Program-made: the position numbers and the translations under genes
The notes under the pieces: model-generated
The model's database searches: none
What the model was told of the DNA's origin: nothing
What the model saw: the letters and a program-made list of their open reading frames with translations, nothing else
Shown: piece after piece, positions 1 through 6,147 of the stretch
Layout of the letters: each line of letters opens with the position of its first letter
Numbering within the stretch: the stretch's first letter is position 1
Source: Escherichia coli O127:H6 str. E2348/69
GTDB lineage: Bacteria > Pseudomonadota > Gammaproteobacteria > Enterobacterales > Enterobacteriaceae
Length of the DNA stretch: 6,147 bases
Assembly (NCBI RefSeq): GCF_000026545.1
Contig: NC_011602.1
Strand: one strand, 5' to 3'

Positions 1-140
1 GATATATTTATTTCCAAAATGCTACAGATACATCATCATGAAACGGATCACCGCAAACAGGTTACTCGCCTGGGGATTCCCTTTCGACCCGAGCATCCGT
101 ATGAGACTCATGCTCGATTATTATTATTATAGAAGCCCCC

Positions 141-956
141 ATGAATAAATCGCTCATCATTTTCGGCATCGTCAACATAACCTCGGACAGTTTCTCCGAT
201 GGAGGCCGGTATCTGGCGCCAGACGCAGCCATTGCGCAGGCGCGTAAGCTGATGGCCGAGGGGGCAGATGTGATCGACCTCGGTCCGGCATCCAGCAATC
301 CCGACGCCGCGCCTGTTTCGTCCGACACAGAAATCGCGCGTATCGCGCCGGTGCTGGACGCGCTCAAGGCAGATGGCATTCCCGTCTCGCTCGACAGTTA
401 TCAACCCGCGACGCAAGCCTATGCCTTGTCGCGTGGTGTGGCCTATCTCAATGATATTCGCGGTTTTCCAGACGCTGCGTTCTATCCGCAATTGGCGAAA
501 TCATCTGCCAAACTCGTCGTTATGCATTCGGTGCAAGACGGGCAGGCAGATCGGCGCGAGGCACCCGCTGGCGACATCATGGATCACATTGCGGCGTTCT
601 TTGACGCGCGCATCGCGGCGCTGACGGGTGCCGGTATCAAACGCAACCGCCTTGTCCTTGATCCCGGCATGGGGTTTTTTCTGGGGGCTGCTCCCGAAAC
701 CTCGCTCTCGGTGCTGGCGCGGTTCGATGAATTGCGGCTGCGCTTCGATTTGCCGGTGCTTCTGTCTGTTTCGCGCAAATCCTTTCTGCGCGCGCTCACA
801 GGCCGTGGTCCGGGGGATGTCGGGGCCGCGACACTCGCTGCAGAGCTTGCCGCCGCCGCAGGTGGAGCTGACTTCATCCGCACACACGAGCCGCGCCCCT
901 TGCGCGACGGGCTGGCGGTATTGGCGGCGCTGAAAGAAACCGCAAGAATTCGTTAA
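141..956 (+). CDS. sul2: Sulfonamide-resistant dihydropteroate synthase Sul2
   Basis: 271-aa ORF, ATG at 141 and TAA at 954-956. The translation (MNKSLIIFGIVNITSDSFSDGG ... LAALKETARIR) matches Sul2 as I recall it over the full length. GC-rich relative to the backbone. Confidence 0.96.
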   Translation: MNKSLIIFGIVNITSDSFSDGGRYLAPDAAIAQARKLMAEGADVIDLGPASSNPDAAPVSSDTEIARIAPVLDALKADGIPVSLDSYQPATQAYALSRGVAYLNDIRGFPDAAFYPQLAKSSAKLVVMHSVQDGQADRREAPAGDIMDHIAAFFDARIAALTGAGIKRNRLVLDPGMGFFLGAAPETSLSVLARFDELRLRFDLPVLLSVSRKSFLRALTGRGPGDVGAATLAAELAAAAGGADFIRTHEPRPLRDGLAVLAALKETARIR

Positions 957-1016
957 CTGCACATTCGGGATATTTCTCTATATTCGCGCTTCATCAGAAA
1001 ACTGAAGGAACCTCCA

Positions 1017-1820
1017 TTGAATCGAACTAATATTTTTTTTGGTGAATCGCATTCTGACTGGTTGCCTGTCAGAGGCGGAGAATCTGGTGATTTTGTTTTT
1101 CGACGTGGTGACGGGCATGCCTTCGCGAAAATCGCACCTGCTTCCCGCCGCGGTGAGCTCGCTGGAGAGCGTGACCGCCTCATTTGGCTCAAAGGTCGAG
1201 GTGTGGCTTGCCCCGAGGTCATCAACTGGCAGGAGGAACAGGAGGGTGCATGCTTGGTGATAACGGCAATTCCGGGAGTACCGGCGGCTGATCTGTCTGG
1301 AGCGGATTTGCTCAAAGCGTGGCCGTCAATGGGGCAGCAACTTGGCGCTGTTCACAGCCTATCGGTTGATCAATGTCCGTTTGAGCGCAGGCTGTCGCGA
1401 ATGTTCGGACGCGCCGTTGATGTGGTGTCCCGCAATGCCGTCAATCCCGACTTCTTACCGGACGAGGACAAGAGTACGCCGCAGCTCGATCTTTTGGCTC
1501 GTGTCGAACGAGAGCTACCGGTGCGGCTCGACCAAGAGCGCACCGATATGGTTGTTTGCCATGGTGATCCCTGCATGCCGAACTTCATGGTGGACCCTAA
1601 AACTCTTCAATGCACGGGTCTGATCGACCTTGGGCGGCTCGGAACAGCAGATCGCTATGCCGATTTGGCACTCATGATTGCTAACGCCGAAGAGAACTGG
1701 GCAGCGCCAGATGAAGCAGAGCGCGCCTTCGCTGTCCTATTCAATGTATTGGGGATCGAAGCCCCCGACCGCGAACGCCTTGCCTTCTATCTGCGATTGG
1801 ACCCTCTGACTTGGGGTTGA
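1017..1820 (+). CDS. strA: Aminoglycoside 3''-phosphotransferase APH(3'')-Ib (streptomycin resistance, StrA)
   Basis: 267-aa ORF with a TTG start at 1017 preceded by GAAGGAAC; translation MNRTNIFFGESHSDWLPVRGG ... matches StrA from memory. Sits 60 bp downstream of sul2, as in the RSF1010-type cluster. Stop TGA at 1818-1820. Confidence 0.95.
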   Translation: MNRTNIFFGESHSDWLPVRGGESGDFVFRRGDGHAFAKIAPASRRGELAGERDRLIWLKGRGVACPEVINWQEEQEGACLVITAIPGVPAADLSGADLLKAWPSMGQQLGAVHSLSVDQCPFERRLSRMFGRAVDVVSRNAVNPDFLPDEDKSTPQLDLLARVERELPVRLDQERTDMVVCHGDPCMPNFMVDPKTLQCTGLIDLGRLGTADRYADLALMIANAEENWAAPDEAERAFAVLFNVLGIEAPDRERLAFYLRLDPLTWG

Positions 1821-2656
1821 TGTTCATGCCGCCTGTTTTTCCTGCTCATTGGCACGTTTCGCAACCTGTTCTCATTGCGGACACCTTTTCCAGCCTCGTT
1901 TGGAAAGTTTCATTGCCAGACGGGACTCCTGCAATCGTCAAGGGATTGAAACCTATAGAAGACATTGCTGATGAACTGCGCGGGGCCGACTATCTGGTAT
2001 GGCGCAATGGGAGGGGAGCAGTCCGGTTGCTCGGTCGTGAGAACAATCTGATGTTGCTCGAATATGCCGGGGAGCGAATGCTCTCTCACATCGTTGCCGA
2101 GCACGGCGACTACCAGGCGACCGAAATTGCAGCGGAACTAATGGCGAAGCTGTATGCCGCATCTGAGGAACCCCTGCCTTCTGCCCTTCTCCCGATCCGG
2201 GATCGCTTTGCAGCTTTGTTTCAGCGGGCGCGCGATGATCAAAACGCAGGTTGTCAAACTGACTACGTCCACGCGGCGATTATAGCCGATCAAATGATGA
2301 GCAATGCCTCGGAACTGCGTGGGCTACATGGCGATCTGCATCATGAAAACATCATGTTCTCCAGTCGCGGCTGGCTGGTGATAGATCCCGTCGGTCTGGT
2401 CGGTGAAGTGGGCTTTGGCGCCGCCAATATGTTCTACGATCCGGCTGACAGAGACGACCTTTGTCTCGATCCTAGACGCATTGCACAGATGGCGGACGCA
2501 TTCTCTCGTGCGCTGGACGTCGATCCGCGTCGCCTGCTCGACCAGGCGTACGCTTATGGGTGCCTTTCCGCAGCTTGGAACGCGGATGGAGAAGAGGAGC
2601 AACGCGATCTAGCTATCGCGGCCGCGATCAAGCAGGTGCGACAGACGTCATACTAG
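1820..2656 (+). CDS. strB: Aminoglycoside 6-phosphotransferase APH(6)-Id (streptomycin resistance, StrB)
   Basis: 278-aa product starting MFMPPVFPAHWHVSQ at ATG 1820, which overlaps the strA stop by 1 bp (TGATG), suggesting translational coupling. The ORF track extends the frame to a TTG at 1811, but the canonical StrB N-terminus supports 1820. Stop TAG at 2654-2656. Confidence 0.94.
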   Translation: MFMPPVFPAHWHVSQPVLIADTFSSLVWKVSLPDGTPAIVKGLKPIEDIADELRGADYLVWRNGRGAVRLLGRENNLMLLEYAGERMLSHIVAEHGDYQATEIAAELMAKLYAASEEPLPSALLPIRDRFAALFQRARDDQNAGCQTDYVHAAIIADQMMSNASELRGLHGDLHHENIMFSSRGWLVIDPVGLVGEVGFGAANMFYDPADRDDLCLDPRRIAQMADAFSRALDVDPRRLLDQAYAYGCLSAAWNADGEEEQRDLAIAAAIKQVRQTSY

Positions 2657-3167
2657 ATATCAAGCGACTTCTCCTATCCCCTGGGAACACATCAATCTCA
2701 CCGGAGAATATCGCTGGCCAAAGCCTTAGCGTAGGATTCCGCCCCTTCCCGCAAACGACCCCAAACAGGAAACGCAGCTGAAACGGGAAGCTCAACACCC
2801 ACTGACGCATGGGTTGTTCAGGCAGTACTTCATCAACCAGCAAGGCGGCACTTTCGGCCATCCGCCGCGCCCCACAGCTCGGGCAGAAACCGCGACGCTT
2901 ACAGCTGAAAGCGACCAGGTGCTCGGCGTGGCAAGACTCGCAGCGAACCCGTAGAAAGCCATGCTCCAGCCGCCCGCATTGGAGAAATTCTTCAAATTCC
3001 CGTTGCACATAGCCCGGCAATTCCTTTCCCTGCTCTGCCATAAGCGCAGCGAATGCCGGGTAATACTCGTCAACGATCTGATAGAGAAGGGTTTGCTCGG
3101 GTCGGTGGCTCTGGTAACGACCAGTATCCCGATCCCGGCTGGCCGTCCTGGCCGCCACATGAGGCAT
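2628..3167 (-). mobile_element. IS91-family (ISCR-like) rolling-circle transposase, 5' fragment only (N-terminal zinc-binding domain; catalytic HUH/Tyr domain absent)
   Basis: The minus-strand ORF starts at ATG (complement of 3165-3167) and encodes ...RPEQTLLYQIVDEYYPAF...CGRLEHGFLRVRCESCHAEHLVAFSCKRRGFCPSCGARRMAESAALLVDEVLPEQPMRQWVLSFPFQLR, the conserved N-terminal Cys-rich zinc-binding signature of IS91/ISCR transposases. Only about 540 bp are available where a full gene needs about 1.2-1.5 kb, and the reading frame runs into the 3' end of strB, so the gene is truncated. Assignment to CR2/ISCR2, the usual partner of sul2, is an inference I could not verify. The exact point where homology ends (somewhere between 2657 and about 2800) is unknown. 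Confidence 0.7.
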
Positions 3168-3186
3168 GTTCCGCGTCCTTGCAATA

Positions 3187-3202
3187 CTGTGTTTACATAC
3201 AG
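3187..3202. promoter_or_regulatory. LexA (SOS) box-like palindrome CTGTGTTTACATACAG (CTGT-N8-ACAG)
   Basis: Perfect CTGT-N8-ACAG with an AT-rich spacer, flanked TA...T as in the E. coli consensus TACTGT-N8-ACAGTA. It lies about 20 bp upstream of the transposase-fragment start codon on the minus strand, and about 19 of 21 bases match the second LexA box at 3651-3666. Function unproven. Confidence 0.45.
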
Positions 3203-3210
3203 TCTATCGC

Positions 3211-3600
3211 TTAGCGGAAAGTTCTTTTACCCTCAGCCGAAATGCCTGCCGTTGCTAGACATTGCCAGCCAGTGCCCGTCACTCCCACTCTTACATTGTT
3301 CGCAGTATCTAGGTACATGTTATTGCGTGCACCTTCATGATGTATAATGTTATTAATGACAGCAGAAAGATCGACAGAATTAATATTCTTCGTACCTGGG
3401 ACAGTTATCGGGTGTCGGCCAGTGATGAGACCAAAGGATGCAGTATAAGATGAACCACTACTATTATCATGGCCACCATTACCACCACCGTTAAAACTAC
3501 CTCCCGAACTTCCAGAGCCGCTATGACCATCATTGTAGGGGTCATTTGGTCCCATGTGACCAAAACCACCGACAGTACCGCTATTTAACTCTGTACTCAT
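3211..3600 (-). CDS. Glycine/serine-rich 129-aa protein of unknown function; colicin-like disordered N-terminus; SOS-box promoter
   Basis: ATG at complement of 3598-3600 with a strong RBS AGAGGA (3608-3613) 7 nt upstream. Product MSTELNSGTVGGFGHMGPNDPYNDGHSGSGSSGGSFNGGGNGGHDNSSGSS... followed by about 70 less biased residues. The ORF track starts the frame 11 codons upstream (3633), but the RBS supports 3600. The coding call is supported mainly by the RBS and promoter architecture; the product class is not established. Confidence 0.55.
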   Translation of the reverse strand: MSTELNSGTVGGFGHMGPNDPYNDGHSGSGSSGGSFNGGGNGGHDNSSGSSYTASFGLITGRHPITVPGTKNINSVDLSAVINNIIHHEGARNNMYLDTANNVRVGVTGTGWQCLATAGISAEGKRTFR

Positions 3601-3636
3601 AAAATTATCCTCTTTGACTTTTAAAAACAGCAAAAA

Positions 3637-3666
3637 CTGTATTTATAACAATGTGTTTATATACAG
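3637..3666 (-). promoter_or_regulatory. Tandem overlapping LexA boxes (colicin-type SOS operator)
   Basis: The plus strand reads CTGTATTTATAACAATGTGTTTATATACAG: box 1 at 3637-3652 (CTGT-N8-CAAT, degenerate inner half) and box 2 at 3651-3666 (ATGT-N8-ACAG), overlapping by 2 bp. This resembles the overlapping dual SOS boxes of colicin operons and sits between a candidate -10 and the RBS of the glycine-rich ORF. Confidence 0.65.
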
Positions 3667-3674
3667 TATTCGAA

Positions 3675-3704
3675 ATACTACGCCCGTCAAAACCACACCG
3701 TCAA
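3675..3704 (-). promoter_or_regulatory. Candidate sigma70 promoter for the glycine-rich ORF
   Basis: On the minus strand: -35 TTGACG (3699-3704), 18-bp spacer, -10 TAGTAT (3675-3680), immediately upstream of the LexA boxes. An alternative -35 TTGACG at 3685-3690 with -10 TACTGT would overlap box 2. Sequence-based only. Confidence 0.4.
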
Positions 3705-3817
3705 CAGGTTTTTTGTGTATTTTTCACGCCTCACGGGCAGCCTCAGACCTTTTGTGTTAAAACAGTAATATGTTCTGCTGTTACAATACGGTACACACAG
3801 GAGACACTGTCACTTTT

Positions 3818-4258
3818 ATGGCATGGCACACAGTTCAAGAGACACTGAAATTAACAGGAAAGTCGCGCTCGCAATTATATCGTGACATGGCTAAAGGCCT
3901 TGTCAGCTATCGCACAGGAAAAAATGATCGCCGGGAGTTCGAGACCAGTGAACTGATTCGGGCCTATGGCGAGCTGCGCACTTCTGAGACACCAAAAAGG
4001 CACAAGGAGGGACACTCCAAATCTGTCGTTAGCCAGGCGGAAAATGCTCAGCTAGACGTCATTCAGCAGAAACTGGACGCTCTGCAGCAGACTGTTACCC
4101 TAATGCTTGAAGACAAGATGGCGCGGGAAGCAGAAAACCGCCTGCGAAATGAGGAGAGGGAACAACTACAGGCCGAAATTAGCCGTCTGGCTGACGCGCT
4201 GGCACAGGAAAAAAAGCGGGGATTCTGGTCGCGGCTGTTTCGCTCCGGTTCAGAGTAA
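3818..4258 (+). CDS. Putative helix-turn-helix DNA-binding protein with C-terminal coiled coil (146 aa; function unknown)
   Basis: ORF with stop TAA at 4256-4258. The preferred start is ATG 3818 (MAWHTVQETLKLTGKSRSQLYRDMAKGLV...), preceded by AGGAG at 3799-3803 (14-nt spacing, longer than ideal) and an extended -10 TGtTACAAT at 3778-3787. An alternative in-frame ATG at 3770 gives 162 aa. The N-terminus looks like an AlpA/excisionase/MerR-like HTH; the C-terminal roughly 70 aa are heptad-like and rich in charged residues and Gln/Leu (...LDALQQTVTLMLEDKMAREAENRLRNEEREQLQAEISRLADALAQEKK) with a basic amphipathic tail. Confidence 0.55.
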   Translation: MAWHTVQETLKLTGKSRSQLYRDMAKGLVSYRTGKNDRREFETSELIRAYGELRTSETPKRHKEGHSKSVVSQAENAQLDVIQQKLDALQQTVTLMLEDKMAREAENRLRNEEREQLQAEISRLADALAQEKKRGFWSRLFRSGSE

Positions 4259-4852
4259 CAGTGCAGGTGACTCTGATTTACCATAACATCTGTTATCAGC
4301 ACCGCCTGAGAGGCCCTCAGGGCGTTTCTGACGGGAAACCGGTAAAACAGGCAACAAACCACCCGAAAACCCGCCAGAAACGCGCAGGCTCTGTTTTTAC
4401 GGCATGCATGAGTATGCGCACAAGTGCATAGCGCGGAAATTCACACCATTCAGCCGGGGTAAGTCCTGTTTCCGGCGTTCTTCCCATCCGAAAACGGTGA
4501 ACGGGGACGCAATTTATTGCGTGGCCGTGAAGCGTTGCCGGCGCAGCCGGAAAACCCGCTGTCAGCACGTTCAGGAAGGGGGTGATGTACAAATGGCACA
4601 GAGGATGAAAGTGACGTATGAGCTGAAGGAGCGATGTAATTCTGTAGTCAGGAAGAATAACCCGTTCATGCAGGCATGAACGATACAGTGAGGAACGCTT
4701 TTTTTGTCACGATCTCCCCTTAACCTGCGTAAATCACCCGCCATGGTTGATTATTTTTCAACCTCAAAATGGTCATACACCTAACGCAGCCGCGATTTTC
4801 ATCGCAACTGCATGAATTAAAAGAAAAAAAAGGAATATTTCGTTTTCACGAG

Positions 4853-4926
4853 TAATACCCGGGTATTAAAAATCCACTGTAATTACATGAAAATAAAGAA
4901 ATAAAAGGTAATACCGGAGTATTACC
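4853..4926. repeat. Cluster of related palindromes: TAATAC-N4-GTATTA twice, plus TGTAATTACA
   Basis: P1 at 4853-4868 is TAATACCCGGGTATTA, a perfect 16-bp palindrome. P2 at 4907-4926 is GGTAATACCGGAGTATTACC, 8-bp arms around CGGA. Both share half-sites TAATAC / GTATTA separated by 4 bp, with centres about 56 bp apart. P3 at 4878-4887 is TGTAATTACA, a perfect 10-bp palindrome in the AT-rich spacer. On the minus strand P2 is followed by TTTTATTTCTTTATTT and so may also act as an intrinsic terminator for the 4950-5099 ORF. Confidence 0.5.
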
Positions 4927-4949
4927 ACGTACGCGGGCAAGCGAAAAAG

Positions 4950-5099
4950 CTATAACGCTTCCCGGCCGACAGGCGACCCAAAATCCACAGGGGCATGCAG
5001 GTTCTCTTCAGTAACCTGCGCCATTAAATCAAAAAGGTCATATTCGCCGGGAAGCTGCGTATCAGTCGAATCCAGTTGTTCATCATATTCAGATGGCAT
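4950..5099 (-). CDS. Hypothetical small acidic protein (49 aa), next to bom/oriT
   Basis: Hand-translated minus-strand ORF, absent from the ORF track (probably below its length cutoff): MPSEYDEQLDSTDTQLPGEYDLFDLMAQVTEENLHAPVDFGSPVGREAL. ATG at complement of 5097-5099, stop at 4950-4952. No clear Shine-Dalgarno. The terminator-like hairpin P2 with a T-run lies 23 nt downstream. Coding status is uncertain. Confidence 0.25.
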   Translation of the reverse strand: MPSEYDEQLDSTDTQLPGEYDLFDLMAQVTEENLHAPVDFGSPVGREAL

Positions 5100-5125
5100 G
5101 GGGTGATATCCAGTAGCTGAGAGGT

Positions 5126-5200
5126 TGTTAGCGGGTTTCGGGGCGCAGCCCTGAACCAGTCATGTAGCGCTAGCGGAGTGTATACTGGCTTACTATGTTG
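5126..5200 (+). other. ColE1-type bom/oriT (basis of mobility) site
   Basis: ...CGGGGCGCAGCCCTGAACCAGTCATGTAGCGCTAGCGGAGTGTATACTGGCTTACTATG closely resembles the pBR322/ColE1 bom region as recalled (GGGGCGCAGCCATGACCCAGTCACGTAGCGATAGCGGAGTGTATACTGGCTTAACTATG). The nick is expected near the conserved TATACTGGCTTA motif (5181-5192). No cognate mob/mbe relaxase gene is present in the window. Confidence 0.6.
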
Positions 5201-5399
5201 CCACGATTGCGAAAATCAGTGAAGTGCTTCATGTGGCAGGAGAAAAAAGGCAGCACCGGCGCGTCAGCAGAATATGCGATACAGGAGATATTCCGCTTCC
5301 TCGCTCACTGACTCGCTACGCTCGGTCGTTCGGCTGCGGCGAGCGGTACCGGCTTACGGACGGGGACGGAAATTTCCTGGAAGATACCAGGAAGACACT

Positions 5400-5470
5400 T
5401 AGCAAAGAAGAGATAAGGCCACGGCGAAGCCGTTTTTCCATAGGCTCCGCCCCCCTGACAAGCATCGCAA
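5400..5470 (-). other. ColE1/p15A-type origin of replication (RNA-DNA transition region)
   Basis: AAGCCGTTTTTCCATAGGCTCCGCCCCCCTGACAAGCATC matches the conserved ori core of p15A/pMB1 replicons as recalled. It lies about 520-550 nt downstream of the inferred RNA II start, on the minus strand. Leading-strand replication is inferred to proceed leftward. Confidence 0.6.
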
Positions 5471-5955
5471 AATCTGACGCTCAAATCAGTGGTGGCGAAA
5501 CCCGACAGGACTATAAAGATCCCAGGCGTTTCCCCCTGGTAGCTCCCTCGTGCGCTCTCCTGTTCCTGCCTTTCGGTTTACCGGTGTCATTCCGCTGTTA
5601 TGGCCGCGGTTTCTCATTCCACGCCTGACACTCAGTTCCGTGAAGGCAGTTCGCTCCAAGCTGGACTGTATGCACGAACCCCCCGTTCAGTCCGACCGCT
5701 GCGCCTTGTCCGGTAACTATCAACTTGAGTCCAACCCGGAAAGACACGACAAAACGCCACTGGCAGCAGCCATTAGTAACAGGAGTGCACGAGAAGATAG
5801 ATTAAGAGGTCTTGAAGTAGAGGCCTGACTGCGGCTACACTGAAAGAACAGTTTTGGTAATGGCGGTCTCGTGAACCCTGTTACCGGGTTAAGCAGTTCC
5901 CCAACTGACTTAACCTTCGAACAAACCGCCTCCCCAGGCGGTTTTTTCGTTTACA
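5432..5955 (-). ncRNA. RNA II pre-primer transcript (approximate extent)
   Basis: Minus-strand promoter with -35 TTGAGA (complement of 5986-5991), 17-bp spacer, -10 TAATCT (complement of 5963-5968). The transcribed region is collinear with the p15A RNA II region as recalled, with many substitutions. Ends are approximate. Confidence 0.6.
5848..5947 (+). ncRNA. RNA I antisense copy-number control RNA (approximate extent)
   Basis: Plus-strand promoter with -35 TTGAAG (5812-5817), 18-bp spacer, -10 TACACT (5836-5841), and a start near ACAGTTTTGG as in ColE1 RNA I. It ends at an intrinsic terminator, CCGCC-TCCCCA-GGCGG plus T7 (5925-5947). It is antisense to the 5' end of RNA II. Confidence 0.6.
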
Positions 5956-6147
5956 GAGCAAGAGATTACGATTCATTGAAAAGGATCTCAAGAAGATCCT
6001 TTGTAGATTACTATCAATTAATCTTCCGAACATGACACCAGTCACTGTTGATTACGGTTAAACCGCTCCGTAACAGGTTTCCCTCGTATTGGTGACTTGC
6101 AGCACCAAAGAAGCAAAAAAGATAAATATATCTACTTATTGAGAGAT

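Follow-up and report, generated by a model that had tools for sequence, protein, structure and literature searches.

A LexA-box promoter on a p9123-family resistance plasmid very probably belongs to the truncated front end of a lysozyme-type bacteriocin gene

Background

Colicin operons are generally repressed by LexA and derepressed upon DNA damage (PMC9517006). A promoter resembling those of colicin operons is found in the 6,147-nucleotide stretch of Escherichia coli O127:H6 str. E2348/69 analyzed here (contig NC_011602.1 of assembly GCF_000026545.1; the whole stretch is referred to as the window), where it is followed by an open reading frame (ORF) of 129 codons on the minus strand (3600..3211; ATG at 3600-3598, TAA at 3213-3211). 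The whole window is a complete small circular plasmid of the p9123 family, and the question raised by this locus is whether the short frame behind the promoter encodes an intact SOS-inducible protein or is what has been left of a larger gene.

The initial annotation of the locus, made from the sequence alone, placed the promoter, LexA boxes, ribosome-binding site and ORF where we find them, and all its coordinates were correct. It noticed that the frame stops 43 bp from the start codon (3167) of an IS91-like transposase gene, here identified as that of ISCR2, and that no immunity or lysis gene follows, which agrees with the ORF listing of the window. It considered both a remnant of a colicin gene cut when the resistance module inserted and an intact small protein such as a mini-bacteriocin or a DNA damage-induced effector.

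In this work we argue that the 129-codon ORF is very probably a pseudogene: the front end of a 260-residue lysozyme-type bacteriocin gene that was truncated by the arrival of ISCR2-sul2.

Results and discussion

The reading frame breaks at the border of ISCR2

A search of distant DNA retrieved a 4,068-bp plasmid of Enterobacter roggenkampii without resistance genes (NZ_CP096196.1, referred to as L002), which is 99.8% identical to window 3292-3720 over the full length of the query. When the two whole plasmids were aligned, identity was 99.7-99.8% in the two long segments and 99-100% in the two short ones: window 3284-4443 corresponds to L002 2909-4068 (1,160 nt, 99.8%, including codons 1-103 of the ORF), window 4444-4639 to L002 1-196, window 4608-6147 to L002 240-1779 and window 1-44 to L002 1780-1823. 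The module composed of sul2, strA, strB and truncated ISCR2 (ΔISCR2; window 45-3290) stands in for 1,085 bp of L002 (1824-2908), which comprise codons 104-260 of the putative toxin gene and all but 7 nt of a convergent partner gene. These 7 nt (ATGAAAC, the start codon and four bases of the deleted 199-amino-acid ORF, which starts at L002 1817) have been retained at window 38..44 on the plus strand, directly upstream of the sul2 leader region, and the module joins the backbone on its left side between 44 and 45.

On the minus strand across the right junction the window reads ...AACAATGTAA|GAGTGGGAGTGACGG and L002 reads ...AACAATGTAA|CAGTGGGGATTGG. More than 3,000 unrelated plasmids (annotated with ISVsa3) match the window from 3100 with their matches ending at 3290/3291, and the base-by-base agreement with L002 stops there as well, so that the junction is assigned to 3290|3291. 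The end of the blastn alignment with L002, at 3284, was rejected as the junction because this run crosses a mismatch at 3290 before it takes in six further shared bases (AGTGGG on the minus strand), which reflect either chance or microhomology.

The intact ORF of L002 (3225..2443, minus strand) encodes 260 residues, the first 103 of which are identical to the window ORF (codons 1-103; 3292..3600, minus strand). Codons 104-129 and the stop codon (3211..3291, minus strand) form a junk tail which, except for its first base, is DNA from the terIS side of ISCR2; in thousands of plasmids the DNA flanking ISVsa3 matches window 3100-3290 at 100%. The proposal of a truncated remnant was thus borne out, as the identity with the parent over residues 1-103 ends at 3291, where the ISCR2 DNA begins at 3290. 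The proposal of an intact small SOS-inducible protein (mini-bacteriocin or DNA-damage effector) could appeal to an intact promoter, ribosome-binding site and start codon, to the occurrence of the unchanged 129-codon ORF on at least 1,000 contigs and to the existence of very small colicins such as the 10.4-kDa colicin Js (PMC6668396). It is contradicted by the junction analysis, which had been named beforehand as its test and which excludes it: the last 26 codons are ISCR2 terIS-side DNA present in thousands of unrelated plasmids, the first 103 are the beginning of a 260-residue gene intact elsewhere, and the break interrupts the catalytic motif and falls within the first lobe of what is one folded domain. 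We regard an intact protein as next to inconceivable.

The Salmonella plasmid NC_005862 carries a complete ISVsa3 and sul2, has no strAB and is 100% identical to the window over the junction-spanning segment 3100-3800. As it shares the junction while lacking strAB, the truncation dates to the acquisition of ISCR2-sul2 and not to that of strA-strB; ISCR2-sul2 without strAB has been proposed as the precursor configuration of the p9123 family (PMC6807383). The idea that the gene was cut when the resistance module inserted is therefore upheld for ISCR2-sul2, whereas strA-strB bears no responsibility. The missing partners have likewise two explanations: the convergent partner was deleted in the same event, but a lysis gene had never been present in the parent unit on L002.

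The surviving codons

The frame of the remnant reaches back in the ORF listing to a TTG at 3633 (140 amino acids), which is the start used by PGAP. To judge from its context, the ATG at 3600 is the better candidate: it is preceded at 7 nt by the ribosome-binding site AAGAGGA (3608..3614, minus strand; read from the sequence, recognized as strong already in the initial annotation and kept in L002 and in the Edwardsiella locus L004 described below), and the intact homolog has been annotated from the same ATG.

Residues 1-55 consist to 62% of Gly, Ser and Asn, including 16 Gly, in agreement with the composition first noticed, and over residues 1-62 the proportion is 58%. Codons 1-103 comprise this disordered N-terminus (residues 1-62) and the first ~40 residues of the lysozyme domain described below. 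The remnant thereby retains ~40 of the ~197 residues of that domain, including the catalytic Glu89 and Asp98, whereas at the junction the codon for the third catalytic residue, Thr104, gives way to one for Arg. Since the break at codon 104 hits the catalytic Thr and strips off the whole C-terminal lobe, the product encoded by the window cannot be an enzyme. The sole match of this product in the NCBIfam scan, RNase HI, was at chance level (E = 0.007) and was dismissed.

The 129-amino-acid product is the "Orf1 protein" (Q6UUU4) of the original p9123 record. Window 3292-3720 matches p9123 (NC_005324) at 100%, as it does many plasmids of 6.0-8.4 kb from E. coli, Shigella, Salmonella, Klebsiella and Citrobacter, and the remnant is at least 99% identical in about 180 plasmid records. 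Near-zero sequence variation has been reported across the whole p9123 family (PMC6807383), and the conservation of the remnant mirrors this very low diversity and is no sign of selection on the ORF. Several large E. coli plasmids (88-122 kb) have kept no more of the remnant than an internal 244-bp piece (window 3343-3586), and on this evidence the remnant appears dispensable. In the one plasmid of this set that was inspected (NZ_CP042900.1, typed as IncFIB; L003) the piece occupies positions 4001-4244 and is flanked by a Tn1721-type inverted repeat, beside tet(A), and a Tn3-type inverted repeat, beside blaTEM; it looks like the footprint of a p9123-type plasmid struck by two transposons and then incorporated.

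The intact gene encodes a predicted T4-lysozyme-like domain

The 260-residue parent is labelled "hypothetical protein" wherever it has a name, with the exception of a few truncated cluster members that are called "GH24 family phage-related lysozyme", "glycoside hydrolase family protein" or "uncharacterized membrane protein". A Pfam scan matched PF00959 (Phage_lysozyme) over residues 86-235 with E = 0.0015, and this family had been precomputed for 16 of the 24 proteins from the homolog search. Among PDB sequences the best matches were T4 lysozymes, the parental HEG...YLD...NVTVGIG being aligned with the E11/D20/T26 motif, and in the family alignment (16 full-length proteins, 17 rows) variation is absent at Glu89 and Asp98 and rare at Thr104.

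The AlphaFold2 model of the parent, built from 17 sequences, has residues 1-62 disordered (predicted local distance difference test, pLDDT, <50) and residues 63-259 folded as one domain (pLDDT ~90). Foldseek comparison of the model with the PDB returned almost exclusively T4 and P22 lysozymes and endolysins of glycoside hydrolase family 24 (GH24), with target template modelling (TM) scores of 0.6-0.72 and probability 1.00. The model contains a β-hairpin insert at residues 121-140, but neither a separate receptor-binding domain nor any third domain. On the strength of these matches and of the predicted structure, the C-terminal part of the parent is assigned as a T4-lysozyme-like (GH24) domain. 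The suggestion that the window holds a remnant of a colicin gene is correct for the colicin-like N-terminus and promoter, but no classical colicin was the source: the parent has 260 residues and ends in a lysozyme-like domain.

The promoter and its LexA boxes

The promoter scan placed a -35 hexamer TTGACG at 3699..3704 and a -10 hexamer TAGTAT at 3675..3680, both on the minus strand and separated by an 18-nt spacer. Two loci served for comparison, a complete Enterobacter operon encoding a colicin-like pore former, an immunity-sized ORF on the opposite strand and a lysis gene (L005), and a tRNase-type colicin-like gene from Edwardsiella (L004); the -35 hexamer of the window aligns with TTGACG in the former and TTGACA in the latter. 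At the -10 hexamer (window 3678, against the region of L002 3303) the window and L005 have TAGTAT, and intact L002 has TAGCAT.

LexA boxes were scored with a weight matrix derived from an informal set of 17 E. coli chromosomal sites, whose own scores span 12.9-27.6 bits, and 300 dinucleotide shuffles of the window were used as a control (highest score 16.5 bits, mean maximum 6.8). The proximal box (core 3651-3666, scored over 3649-3668; ATGTGTTTATATACAG, minus strand CTGTATATAAACACAT) is strong: with 17.8-18.7 bits it falls within the training range, a score reached by none of the 300 shuffles, and its 16-mer is identical in L002, L004 and L005. The putative distal box (core 3637-3652, scored over 3635-3654; CTGTATTTATAACAAT, minus strand ATTGTTATAAATACAG) overlaps the proximal one by 2 nt, has one good half-site and attains 9.3-10.4 bits, under the weakest training site and over the mean shuffle maximum. 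Two overlapping LexA boxes had been claimed at 3637-3666; the proximal one is strong, and the distal one is a weak candidate.

By the same matrix 21.6 and 15.2 bits were obtained for the two boxes of ColE1 cea and 17.8 and 11.8 bits for those of L005, whose distal box agrees with that of the window in its 14-nt offset and in its degenerate inner half-site. The window sites, one strong and one weak, stand in the usual colicin layout. The window promoter can be aligned from the -35 hexamer to the ribosome-binding site with L005 and L004, with 18 bases (TACTGTATATAAACACAT) invariant, and this alignment marks it as homologous to colicin promoters, beyond resemblance to a consensus. From these sequences and from the behavior of colicin operons in general we infer that the remnant unit is under LexA control.

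The parent gene and its convergent partner

On L002 the parent gene lies on a 4-kb ColE1-type plasmid without phage genes, behind a colicin-type LexA promoter, and the ORF of the 199-amino-acid partner (1817-2416, plus strand) converges on it 26 bp downstream of its end. The intact parent is present on at least 1,000 contigs and the partner on at least 939 contigs of the assemblies. Three relatives of the parent with 41-66% identity, from an Enterobacter kobei plasmid, a sequencing-run contig and a Serratia chromosome, are all accompanied 30-45 bp downstream by a convergent gene for 212-218 amino acids, homologous to the L002 partner (28-38% identity). All four partner proteins carry a signal-peptide-like sequence at the N-terminus and share two conserved cysteines, and the Pfam scan matched the partner family to no Pfam family. 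In two of the three relatives the start codon is preceded by a strong LexA box (L007 2941-2960, 25.0 bits; L010 2930-2949, 24.4 bits; both genes start at 3001).

The first 24 residues of the parent are 92% identical to those of a 447-amino-acid pore former with ColA_N and Colicin domains, a resemblance which, judged by this identity, is the domain shuffling typical of colicins. A putative lysis ORF and a TolA-like neighbor accompany the gene of this ColA-type relative. A small gene with a TolA domain stands beside the bacteriocin gene in two colicin-type loci related to the parent by promoter or N-terminus (GCA_000568095.1, L012, 1641-2030; L005 3552-3974), and is not found in the window; it may have a decoy or protection function. 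Taking the promoter, the N-terminus and the convergent partner together with the analogies discussed below, we infer that the parent is a bacteriocin, and its 199-amino-acid partner is likely to be a periplasmic immunity protein.

A parent of another nature has also to be considered, namely a phage-type endolysin or other cell-wall hydrolase which has come to lie behind a LexA-controlled promoter. The folded domain is indeed closest to phage GH24 lysozymes, one relative is situated among prophage genes (antiterminator Q, lambda P), no separate receptor-binding domain is predicted, and the tblastn link to pesticin amounts at most to a weak local match. On the other hand, the tblastn search with the parent found no match in 50,697 phage records, which also disposed of telomere-phage "telocins" and of other phage sources as candidates, and the gene resides on a 4-kb ColE1-type plasmid free of phage genes. 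Endolysins need no periplasmic partner and are normally paired with a holin, and the conserved convergent partner with its signal peptide is arranged like pim beside pst on pPCP1. Since the disordered N-terminus (62 residues) is rich in Gly and has its first 24 residues in common with a colicin-A-type pore former, and since the promoter is homologous to those of colicin operons, an endolysin-like parent seems distinctly unlikely.

As a bacteriocin, the parent finds its nearest parallel in the pesticin/Pim system of Yersinia pestis pPCP1, which also combines a ColE1-type plasmid, a convergent immunity-type gene and the lack of a lysis gene; on pPCP1 pim (4385-4780, plus strand) and pst (5888-4815, minus strand) are separated by a gap of about 30 bp. 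The killing domain of pesticin is a T4-lysozyme-like muramidase acting in the periplasm, where Pim is located too (PMC3390615). Pesticin differs by its length of 357 residues and its distinct FyuA-binding domain, whereas the parent has 260 residues and, in the model, no separate receptor-binding domain. Homology to pesticin was tried and rejected (hhalign probability 11%; Pfam PF16754 with E = 0.0017 over residues 160-229 only), and so was that of the partner to Pim (0.2% probability for the partner family).

The second parallel is colicin Z, a peptidoglycan-degrading protein of 237 amino acids induced by mitomycin C and encoded by the 4,007-bp plasmid pColZ, with activity and immunity genes on opposite strands, no lysis gene, a -35 hexamer TTGACG and an SOS box (PMC6668396). 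The two systems resemble each other in the size of the toxin (~240-260 amino acids) and of the plasmid (~4 kb), but the parent has a 199-amino-acid partner with a signal peptide and a GH24-like killing domain, which has not been reported for colicin Z. Colicin Z itself is set apart from the parent by its published description (237 amino acids, an immunity protein with four transmembrane segments and a single SOS box). With classical colicins (ColE1 cea, colicin A-type) the parent shares a promoter predicted to be LexA-repressed, with a strong box and a weak, overlapping candidate box just past the -10 hexamer, and the Gly-rich disordered N-terminus; unlike them, it has a lysozyme killing domain in place of a pore former or nuclease, and neither a lysis gene nor a central receptor-binding domain.

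The ISCR2 side of the junction

Downstream of the bacteriocin unit, on the same strand, lies a LexA box that belongs to ISCR2 (CTGTGTTTACATACAG, core 3187-3202; site 3185-3204, TACTGTGTTTACATACAGTC). With 21.8-22.4 bits it is the top LexA score of the whole window, and it overlaps the TAGACT -10 element. In a recent study LexA was shown by electrophoretic mobility shift assay (EMSA) to bind the P_rcr region of ISCR2 in vitro, the TAGACT -10 element was named and the rcr promoter was found nearly silent even when derepressed (bioRxiv 10.1101/2025.11.21.689736). In the window the box lies just upstream of an ORF (2628..3167, minus strand; annotated "IS91-like element ISVsa3 family transposase") that starts with the N-terminal part of the truncated ISCR2/ISVsa3 transposase, and the plasmid thus has two predicted LexA-controlled promoters in tandem on its minus strand. 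The orphan colicin promoter, the remnant and the ISCR2 transposase gene are co-directional both in the window (3167-3704) and in NC_005862.1 (L001, 569-2528), and a simple scan of the minus strand between 3211 and about 350 found no terminator-like site. From this layout, SOS-driven read-through into ISCR2, or antisense transcription into strB-strA-sul2, is conceivable.

The remnant might accordingly have been co-opted, its SOS promoter boosting the ISCR2 transposase gene in plasmids with a complete ISVsa3 or producing antisense transcripts into strB-strA-sul2, or its surviving translocation segment acting as a decoy that shields the host from the parental bacteriocin. The common orientation of remnant, ISCR2 LexA box and transposase gene with no terminator-like site predicted between them speaks for such a role, and so does the presence of the same junction with a complete ISVsa3 in NC_005862. 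The argument is, however, one of position; the transposase of the window is truncated, so that read-through has no transposase to express, the remnant is further broken in other plasmids, and a fragment with neither export signal nor lysis protein is an unlikely decoy outside the cell. Co-option is highly improbable in our judgement.

Also unlikely, though slightly less so, are two further proposals: that the parent family represents a new minimal class of colicin-like bacteriocins, and that the orphan promoter gives SOS read-through into ISCR2. Such a class would consist of nothing but a disordered import segment joined without a linker domain to a lysozyme of T4 type, and its periplasmic immunity protein would likewise be of a new type; receptor recognition may then reside in the disordered tail or in the hairpin insert of the enzyme. 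Under the second proposal, a transposase whose own promoter is nearly silent would be subject to real SOS induction wherever ISVsa3 is complete, and antisense transcription would run across the resistance genes in the sul2-strA-strB forms.

Proposed origin of the locus

The origin that we favor, truncation of a lysozyme-type bacteriocin gene by ISCR2-sul2, would have begun with a small ColE1-type (RNAI/RNAII) plasmid bearing a LexA-repressed bacteriocin gene. Its toxin would have had 62 disordered, Gly-rich residues at the N-terminus, followed by a muramidase domain of the T4-lysozyme-like (GH24) type, and its convergent gene would have encoded a signal-peptide protein of 199 amino acids, likely for periplasmic immunity. 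On acquisition of ISCR2-sul2, with strA-strB added later, 1,085 bp including toxin codons 104-260 and nearly the whole partner gene would have been lost, and the frame would now continue for 26 codons into terIS-side DNA of ISCR2 before it stops. The remnant unit is probably still transcribed on LexA cleavage; its product, a disordered tail, a one-lobe fragment and 26 junk residues, would most likely be unstable and functionless. In the absence of a functional toxin, the plasmid has no need of an immunity gene.

Several points weigh against this account. The distal LexA box is weak and the matrix was built on an informal set of sites; LexA binding, transcription and the absence of a stable product are predictions from sequence. 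The Pfam and PDB sequence matches of the parent are individually marginal (E about 1e-3 to 3e-2), and the assignment of its fold leans on a structure predicted from just 17 sequences. The parent family, with no characterized member, is a candidate bacteriocin family, and the near-perfect conservation of the remnant in about 180 records would be expected also of a functional gene.

The plasmid and its family

The p9123 family consists of plasmids with sul2-strA-strB-ΔISVsa3, the configuration found also in the window (PMC6807383), and is known as well under the names p9123/pCERC1 and "RelN-RNA type 1". In the window sul2 occupies positions 141-956, strA 1017-1820 and strB 1811-2656, and the RNAI of the ColE1-type replicon is found at 5849-5950 on the plus strand (Rfam RF00106, 73.9 bits). 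Divergent from the bacteriocin promoter is an ORF labelled elsewhere "entry exclusion protein 1" (3818-4258, plus strand), and a 49-amino-acid ORF on the minus strand (4950-5099) is a "hypothetical protein" in sister plasmids. A "MazE" toxin-antitoxin system has been reported for the family in a published survey. In a survey of 2019 all 35 of the 35 family members carried sul2, and the resistance-free ancestral type was not among them.

The window, of 6,147 bp, is shorter than p9123 (6,222 bp) because it lacks an array of 11-bp tandem repeats. In L002 this array (TGATGTAAAAG, 5.6 copies; 189-250) lies between imperfect direct repeats of 32 bp; it is missing from the window at about 4608-4639, which makes the window 75 bp shorter there. 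The sizes of several family plasmids differ in steps of 11 bp (6,178, 6,189, 6,200, 6,211 and 6,222).

Conclusions

For the window itself the result is of small importance: the observation that started the analysis was correct and has an ordinary explanation, as a colicin-type gene that a resistance module has cut short while sparing its LexA promoter is of an already known kind. In the open-access literature and the database annotation within reach, Orf1 was nowhere named a bacteriocin remnant, and neither the ancestral backbone nor the parent family (disordered tail, GH24 domain and periplasmic partner) was described, although earlier descriptions may exist elsewhere. The analysis explains the "hypothetical protein" Orf1 of p9123, which has been carried for about two decades without annotation by a small resistance plasmid that ranks among the most widespread in E. 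coli, Shigella and Salmonella. Together, parent and partner make up a candidate system for a peptidoglycan-degrading bacteriocin of unusually simple build, common yet uncharacterized, of possible interest for protein antibiotics in the manner of pesticin-T4 lysozyme hybrids, klebicins and telocins. For the p9123 family the exact site and extent of the founding event are now fixed: ISCR2-sul2 was exchanged for 1,085 bp of a bacteriocin plasmid, whereby a plasmid associated with Enterobacter, losing both its putative toxin gene and its likely immunity gene, would have been turned into a resistance plasmid.

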